Sequence record: PX915678.1
Origin: a phage
DNA: 64,000 bases
Direction: 5' to 3' (one strand)
Shown here: positions 19,530 to 20,596 of the stretch, piece after piece
How the letters are laid out: each line of letters starts with the position of its first letter
Numbering within the stretch: position 1 is the stretch's first letter
The notes under the pieces: generated by a model
Told to the model about the DNA's origin: nothing
Database searches by the model: none
The model's input: only the letters and a program-made list of their open reading frames with translations
Made by a program: the position numbers and the translations under genes

Positions 19530-20390
19530 TTACACCGCCATCTTTCCTTTAATTGGCGGGTGAGATACATAGTTGTTAAGAACAAAATTATGCGGCTTTG
19601 CGAATTGACTCAACCAAAATACCTGCGATTCTGTGTCCCATTCATCAAATTCATCTGGAAATTTTAATTGTAATTCGCATAAATCCATAGGTTCACGACG
19701 CAAAATTTCTTTACATTGTTCTACGTGATTCATATAGATATGAGTATTACCACCAGAAAATATCAAATCTCCAGGAATAAGATTACACATCTTAGCTACA
19801 ATATGAACTAACGTAGCATATGATGCAATATTAAATGGAAGACCGAGGAAAACATCTACCGAACGTTGATACCACTGCAAATCCAAATAGCCATTACGCA
19901 CATTAAACTGATAGAACATATGACAAGGTGGTAATGCCATATATTTAAGTTCAGCTGGATTCCATGCAGAAACAATTTGACGCCTATCATTTGGTAGTTT
20001 TTTAATACGATCAACAACTTCTATAATTTGGTCTACACCACCAAAATCGCGCCATTGTTTTCCATAAATTGGACCAAGTTCACCACTATGGTATCCTAAA
20101 TCTTTTGCTTGATTTTCGTAATTTTCATCCCAGACTGTTTTGCCTTGAATTAATGAATCATGTTGAATTAATCGCAAATCATTGACATTTGTGCTTCCCG
20201 ATAAAAACCATATTAGTTCAGCAATGCAAGCTTTCCAGGCGAGCTTCTTAGTCGTTACTGCAGGAAAACCTTTAGTTAAATCCCAGCGTAATTTAGTACC
20301 GAACAAAGCAATTGTTCCTGTGCCTGTTCGGTCATCGGTTTCGTAGCCATTTTCTAGGATATCTTTAATTAAAAATTGGTATTGTTTCAT
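19530..20390 (-). CDS. td: thymidylate synthase, uninterrupted (no intron)
   Basis: 286 aa from MKQYQ...; folate site ALPPCH; single continuous ORF. Confidence 0.95.
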   Translation of the reverse strand: MKQYQFLIKDILENGYETDDRTGTGTIALFGTKLRWDLTKGFPAVTTKKLAWKACIAELIWFLSGSTNVNDLRLIQHDSLIQGKTVWDENYENQAKDLGYHSGELGPIYGKQWRDFGGVDQIIEVVDRIKKLPNDRRQIVSAWNPAELKYMALPPCHMFYQFNVRNGYLDLQWYQRSVDVFLGLPFNIASYATLVHIVAKMCNLIPGDLIFSGGNTHIYMNHVEQCKEILRREPMDLCELQLKFPDEFDEWDTESQVFWLSQFAKPHNFVLNNYVSHPPIKGKMAV

Positions 20391-20596
20391 TAGTTCATCC
20401 AAGAATACGTAGAAGGATATTTGGCAAAGTTAGGCTTATATCCTAATTTAACCATTTGTTTTGCTTTGCGAGTAAATCCTAAAGAACGCTCACCTTTAAG
20501 ATATTGTTTTGGTGTCATAGGCCCTTGATGCATCTGCCGACAAATAAAAAGAGCCATAGCGTTAGGAACATCCTTAACTTTTAATTTATTGCTCAT
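20390..20596 (-). CDS. small basic protein (68 aa) between frd and td
   Basis: ATG overlaps frd stop (ATGA); stop overlaps td ATG (TAATG); K/R-rich. Confidence 0.45.

Follow-up and report, generated by a model that had tools for sequence, protein, structure and literature searches.

A basic PHROG 9550 gene set exactly between the phage genes frd and td is probably an accessory gene that preserves their translational coupling

Results

A 68-codon frame fills the frd-td interval

The window, i.e. the whole 64,000-nucleotide stretch of phage DNA that was analysed (sequence record PX915678.1), encodes dihydrofolate reductase (frd) and thymidylate synthase (td) on the minus strand, and the gap between these two genes is filled exactly by a 68-aa ORF on the same strand. 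The features of the locus are:

20593..21174, minus strand: frd, dihydrofolate reductase, 193 aa (Pfam DHFR_1, E=3.5e-19)
20593..20596, minus strand: ATGA overlap, with the frd TGA (20595..20593) within the ORF ATG (20596..20594); weak Shine-Dalgarno (SD) pairing of -3.5 kcal/mol
20390..20596, minus strand: 68-aa ORF (coordinates including the stop codon) with an ATG start; member of PHROG 9550, 7.9 kDa, pI 10.26
20388..20392, minus strand: TAATG overlap, in which the ORF TAA (20392..20390) and the td ATG (20390..20388) share one base; weak SD pairing of -3.1 kcal/mol
about 20340..20606, minus strand: low-diversity island consisting of the ORF and approximately the first 50 nt of td, ~97% identical among 11 carriers, compared with averages of 85-87% and minima of 74-75% in the frd and td flanks
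19530..20390, minus strand: td, thymidylate synthase, 286 aa (Pfam Thymidylat_synt, E=1.6e-93)

The td start was taken as the ATG at 20390 (MKQYQ, equivalent to that of T4); the ORF list runs td out to a TTG at 20402. The initial annotation had described a small, K/R-rich ORF at 20390-20596 that overlaps the frd stop as ATGA and the td start as TAATG, and this description is borne out in every respect. The ORF lies on the minus strand and encodes 68 aa from an ATG, and its product is indeed basic, with 13 K+R vs. 2 D+E and a net charge of about +11. Both overlaps are present in the window sequence: the frd/ORF junction reads ATAAATGAGCA, where the TGA of frd lies within the ATG of the ORF, and the ORF/td junction reads GAACTAATGAAA, with the ORF TAA and the td ATG having one base in common.

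The ORF is an exact insertion relative to T4

In T4 (NC_000866), frd occupies 145109..145690 and td ends at 145112, a 4-nt overlap that agrees with the direct frd-td overlap stated in the initial annotation. Pairwise alignment of the window with T4 gives one exact 204-nt indel flanked by the 5-nt repeat AATGA, and the start of the ORF is therefore the same ATGA that starts td in T4. The sequence upstream of this point (...ACGGAATCAGTATATAAATGA) is identical in the two phages, in both the frd stop is embedded in the start codon that follows, and td of the window likewise begins on a stop/start overlap. The difference is that the ATGA of the window starts the 68-aa ORF, with td coupled one step later via TAATG, making a three-gene relay out of what is a two-gene pair in T4. 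The gene is not present in T4, RB3, RB6 or T6. When the junction was used as a megablast query, about 136 of the 570 T-even-type records matched carried the ORF, so that the proposed insertion relative to T4 holds as a presence/absence polymorphism. The td gene of the window is uninterrupted and has neither a group I intron nor I-TevI; T4 td has a group I intron with I-TevI. A linkage of the ORF-less junction to the td intron/I-TevI was considered, using a query that joined the ORF to 400 nt of the T4 intron, and rejected: 58 records have both, many others have only one of the two, and the window itself has the ORF without the intron, so that the two neither exclude each other nor show an obvious association.

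The gene is already catalogued

The gene is known and ordinary, and is catalogued as a hypothetical protein of PHROG 9550. Residues 1-68 match profile positions 1-68 of 68 (E=1.3e-45), 28 of 28 diverse homologs also match phrog_9550, and no difference between the window protein and the rest of the family was found. Most carriers among the matches listed annotate a "hypothetical protein" CDS between dihydrofolate reductase and thymidylate synthase, a label found in more than 100 Tequatrovirus and Dhakavirus records, and the exact protein sequence is present in NCBI (under many accessions), UniRef and other sources, as well as in 332 contigs of the collection searched. The initial annotation had considered the ORF to be possibly unannotated, and had named its prior annotation at this position in T4-like genomes as the observation that would speak against the proposal. 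Comparison of the frd-td junction across T-even genomes gives just that outcome: the ORF is annotated at the exact position in most carrier records. A literature search returned nothing on an ORF between frd and td, and a 2010 review of T4-related genomes mentions the two flanking genes only under auxiliary metabolism (PMC2993671).

Comparative data indicate a protein-coding gene under purifying selection

A tblastn search returned matches to the ORF in 238 phage records. An open frame of 68 codons has a chance of ~0.005 at the local base composition. Conservation across genera, together with dN/dS values well below 1 (0.04-0.28, against homologs of 60-99% amino acid identity), excludes a chance frame and indicates that the 68-codon frame is a genuine, conserved protein-coding gene under purifying selection. 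Homologs of 68-77 aa are conserved over their full length. The N-terminal third (18 residues cited) is conserved to the same degree as the rest, which argues that records with a 42-aa annotation give a truncated form, and the N-terminal 26 residues are kept in distant phages. When 1.84 billion representative proteins were searched exhaustively with HMMER, only ~10 clusters were recovered, all of small phage proteins of 68-108 aa; a repetitive 1402-aa protein among the HMM matches (P0026) was discarded as spurious.

The protein itself has no Pfam (E≤1), NCBIfam or PDB sequence match, and the PHROG annotation yielded no function either. AlphaFold2, run with a 28-sequence alignment, gives a confident prediction of three helices at residues 13-24, 29-38 and 43-49 (pLDDT 84, pTM 0.63). 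Foldseek comparison of this model with the PDB gave nothing at E≤0.001, and a BFVD search returned only a member of the protein's own family. The predicted model resembles no known fold and could not be assigned to the helix-turn-helix or any other known nucleic-acid-binding fold. A homing endonuclease (GIY-YIG/HNH) or its remnant was rejected on account of the full-length conservation and the lack of a nuclease domain, with only scattered chance Pfam matches among 18 homologs.

Homologs occur both at td and away from it

The initial annotation had suggested that the insertion might be lineage-specific, and this does not hold. In the T4-like carriers examined, the gene lies directly 5' of td with a stop/start overlap in five lineages: Tequatrovirus (Sso113), Dhakavirus (JS98), Marfavirus (Marfa), Serratia phage 4S and Kanagawavirus (CIP9). 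The overlap with td is kept in Marfa, 4S, CIP9 and JS98, and has the form GTGA in CIP9. Homologs are also found in unrelated phages, namely as gp235 of phAPEC8 (Phapecoctavirus, 43% identity) and in several metagenomic phage contigs, where they are surrounded by small early ORFs and neither td nor frd is found within 4-5 kb. No functional annotation was found for the neighbours of these homologs outside T4-like phages, which belong to families without known function or to no family.

In Marfa, 4S and CIP9 the frd stop is separated from the ORF homolog by a phrog_1928 ORF. This companion (~110-148 aa) is also present between frd and td, together with the PHROG 9550 gene, in an Erwinia-phage-like contig (L016); its coordinates are 2643-2996 in L003, 2624-3004 in L004, 2326-2661 plus 2645-3004 in L005 and 1839-2285 in L016, and CIP9 has two tandem copies. 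The L016 contig is a 2.6-kb metagenomic sequence from a T4 relative akin to the Erwinia phages Cronus, IT22 and FBB1, in which the homolog of the window protein (1065-1289, 61% identity) immediately precedes, and overlaps by 4 nt, the DHFR gene instead of td.

The ORF resembles the small accessory ORFs of T4-like phages such as frd.1-frd.3, nrdA.1 and nrdA.2, which are also small, on the early strand, variably present and packed tightly between conserved genes of nucleotide metabolism; it differs from them in having no T4 copy and in having homologs outside Straboviridae (Phapecoctavirus). Between frd.1 and frd, the minus strand of the window has two more small ORFs, at 21174-21419 (81 aa, phrog_3183) and 21428-21763 (111 aa, Pfam DUF7247, phrog_3566). 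T4 has only a 71-nt gap at this place. Here, too, the phages differ by indels of whole genes. On the other side of td, nrdA.1-like (18963-19289, minus strand, 108 aa) and nrdA.2-like (19243-19518, minus strand, 91 aa, listed with a TTG start) ORFs overlap by ~47 nt as they do in T4; JS98 has no nrdA.2 equivalent.

The ORF lies in a low-diversity island

A comparison of the window with JS98, which belongs to another genus, shows the ORF to be far less diverse than its neighbours. At the nucleotide level, frd and td are each 75% identical in the two phages and the ORF is 97% identical, and the proportion of synonymous differences is 0.61 for frd and 0.72 for td vs. 0.13 for the ORF. The same is seen among 11 carriers (7 Tequatrovirus and 4 Dhakavirus). 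Pairwise identity in this set averages 97.2% in the ORF and never falls below 92.6%, compared with averages of 85.4% in frd and 86.8% in the first 550 nt of td and minima of 75% and 74%, respectively. An ORF identity of ~97% against 75-87% for frd and td suggests, as the simplest reading, that a cassette of ~260 bp has recently been exchanged horizontally between the two genera. Against Marfa, CIP9 and 4S, the synonymous sites of the ORF are near saturation.

Among Tequatroviruses, frd (~20800-20875) and td (20150-20200) are mosaic, with sharp drops in mean pairwise identity to 0.64-0.79. The window is 86% identical to Sso113 in frd and 97.5% identical in the 5' part of td.

The junctions have the geometry of translational coupling

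Predicted pairing with the anti-SD sequence is weak for both the ORF (-3.5 kcal/mol) and td (-3.1 kcal/mol), compared with -5.6 to -7.8 kcal/mol for five other window genes tested. For the homologs outside T4-like phages, SD pairing is -9.3 to -13.2 kcal/mol in four of the five checked and -5.2 kcal/mol in the fifth. Of the features looked for in overlapping genes, the stop/start overlap is present at both junctions (ATGA, TAATG), and neither downstream start has a strong ribosome-binding site of its own. No promoter- or terminator-like site was found in the frd-td interval, and the nearest terminator-like hairpin lies after gene 32, at 22833..22815(-). Finally, td starts on the stop codon of the preceding gene in every T4-like genome inspected and therefore appears to depend on coupling. 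The proposal of the initial annotation that the ORF is a coupling peptide thus stands in part: the overlaps and the weak SDs fit translational coupling, but the purifying selection on the ORF and the homologs that lie apart from td and frd and have strong SDs themselves indicate that it is not merely a coupling device.

Discussion

Taken together, this PHROG 9550 member is probably a dispensable accessory gene in the early frd-td-nrdA unit of T4-like phages, encoding a basic three-helix protein, relaying frd-to-td coupling and forming part of a recently exchanged cassette. Its dispensability follows from its absence from T4 and most Tequatroviruses. As neither the ORF nor td start has a usable Shine-Dalgarno sequence, the geometry of the junctions points to termination-reinitiation from frd to the ORF to td. 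Ribosomes that finish frd at its UGA would start again on the ORF AUG that overlaps it, translate the 68 codons, stop at the UAA and start once more on the AUG of td, which overlaps in turn. In this way the ORF would relay the frd-to-td coupling that T4 obtains by a direct ATGA overlap, and appears to be built in such a way as to preserve the coupling of td. The cassette of ~260 bp may have been swapped between Tequatrovirus and Dhakavirus via recombination in the conserved 3' end of frd and 5' end of td. As for the protein, its charge of about +11 and the independence of homologs from td hint that it might bind nucleic acid or an acidic partner, acting early and on its own. The locus would provide a clean natural case of an accessory gene placed into a translationally coupled pair with the coupling left intact.

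How does this compare with other explanations for the gene? Its position directly 5' of td with a stop/start overlap in five T4-like lineages could mean that the protein, co-made with td, is a dedicated partner or regulator of Td or Frd, e.g. a subunit or modulator of the dNTP-synthesising complex, and the L016 homolog, which overlaps the start of the DHFR gene instead, would fit such a role. Yet Td and Frd are produced in the absence of the ORF by T4 and about three-quarters of the T-even-type records matched, and neither td nor frd lies within 4-5 kb of the phAPEC8-like and other homologs. In addition, gene order in T4-like phages is inherited as a block, so that the proximity to td counts as no more than one or two independent cases, and we regard a dedicated partner as distinctly unlikely. 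Another idea is that the presence of the gene reflects spread rather than a role in the operon, making it a selfish or recently selected mobile cassette, e.g. a counter-defence gene on the sweep through coliphages or homing-endonuclease-driven cargo. The polymorphism exactly between two conserved genes, the 97% island in mosaic 75-87% flanks common to two genera, and the richness of the T4 32-nrdB region in homing endonuclease genes (segG, I-TevI, mobE, I-TevIII) are what such a cassette would leave behind. This remains rather unlikely in our opinion, given that the protein has no nuclease or other recognised domain, that the ORF is not linked to the td intron/I-TevI (records with both, and many with either alone), and that other genera carry diverged copies at this position, in keeping with vertical inheritance over a long time. 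The seg/mob homing endonuclease cassettes of T-even phages provide the obvious comparison, being likewise inserted between conserved genes, polymorphic for presence and near-identical within diverged flanks; the window ORF differs in having only 68 aa and no GIY-YIG/HNH domain, and an endonuclease function cannot be assigned to it. A related and equally doubtful possibility is that the cassette is in a recent sweep, moving between Tequatrovirus and Dhakavirus at the frd/td junction by virtue of a selectable advantage, e.g. as a counter-defence or small nucleic-acid-binding takeover factor. In that case, the seamless stop/start design would let the cassette insert or excise without disturbing td expression. 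In any event, 97% identity within ~75% flanks makes the gene a reasonable low-cost candidate for phage accessory-gene screens.

Two further readings were considered. The low diversity could stem from a functional RNA element over the ORF, e.g. a structure controlling td translation, and synonymous sites in the ORF are indeed far more conserved than those in frd and td among coliphages. We consider this very unlikely: predicted folding is no better than that of shuffled sequences (z=0.09, and z=-1.35 around the td start), Rfam gave nothing beyond a chance match of 12.9 bits, and the near-saturated synonymous sites in comparisons with Marfa, CIP9 and 4S speak against a conserved RNA. The least credible explanation is a non-functional spacer or decayed larger gene (e.g. 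a homing endonuclease) kept only to carry ribosomes to td. Weak SDs and exact stop/start overlaps would be expected of a spacer, and in some records the annotation covers just a 42-aa piece or is absent altogether, but this reading is already contradicted by the selection and homology data: dN/dS is 0.04-0.28, conservation covers the full length of 68-77 aa including the N-terminal 26 residues, four of the five checked homologs outside T4-like phages have strong SDs of their own, and the protein does not resemble GIY-YIG or HNH families. An accessory gene that relays the frd-to-td coupling is thus our preferred reading.

One modest point of interest is the inconsistent annotation of the ORF across records. 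It is missing from the JS98 (RefSeq; 2001-2207 of L010), JS10, Paracelsus and SH7 records. ACG-C40 (1279-1407 of L022), IME339 and Klebsiella phage EI have only a 42-aa piece annotated, PYPS2T and vB_EcoM_P8 call it a "flagellar biosynthesis protein", and Shinka gives it as "DUF4858". The flagellar label is unsupported, and DUF4858, one source's name for the identical protein, looks like an annotation error, as no Pfam family matches at E≤1. In SH7 the unannotated ORF match is 205 nt long (1201-1405 of L020), and Shigella phage sb4 has a truncated ORF and a td divided into two CDSs (1201-2267 of L018); both cases probably reflect frameshift sequencing errors in the records.
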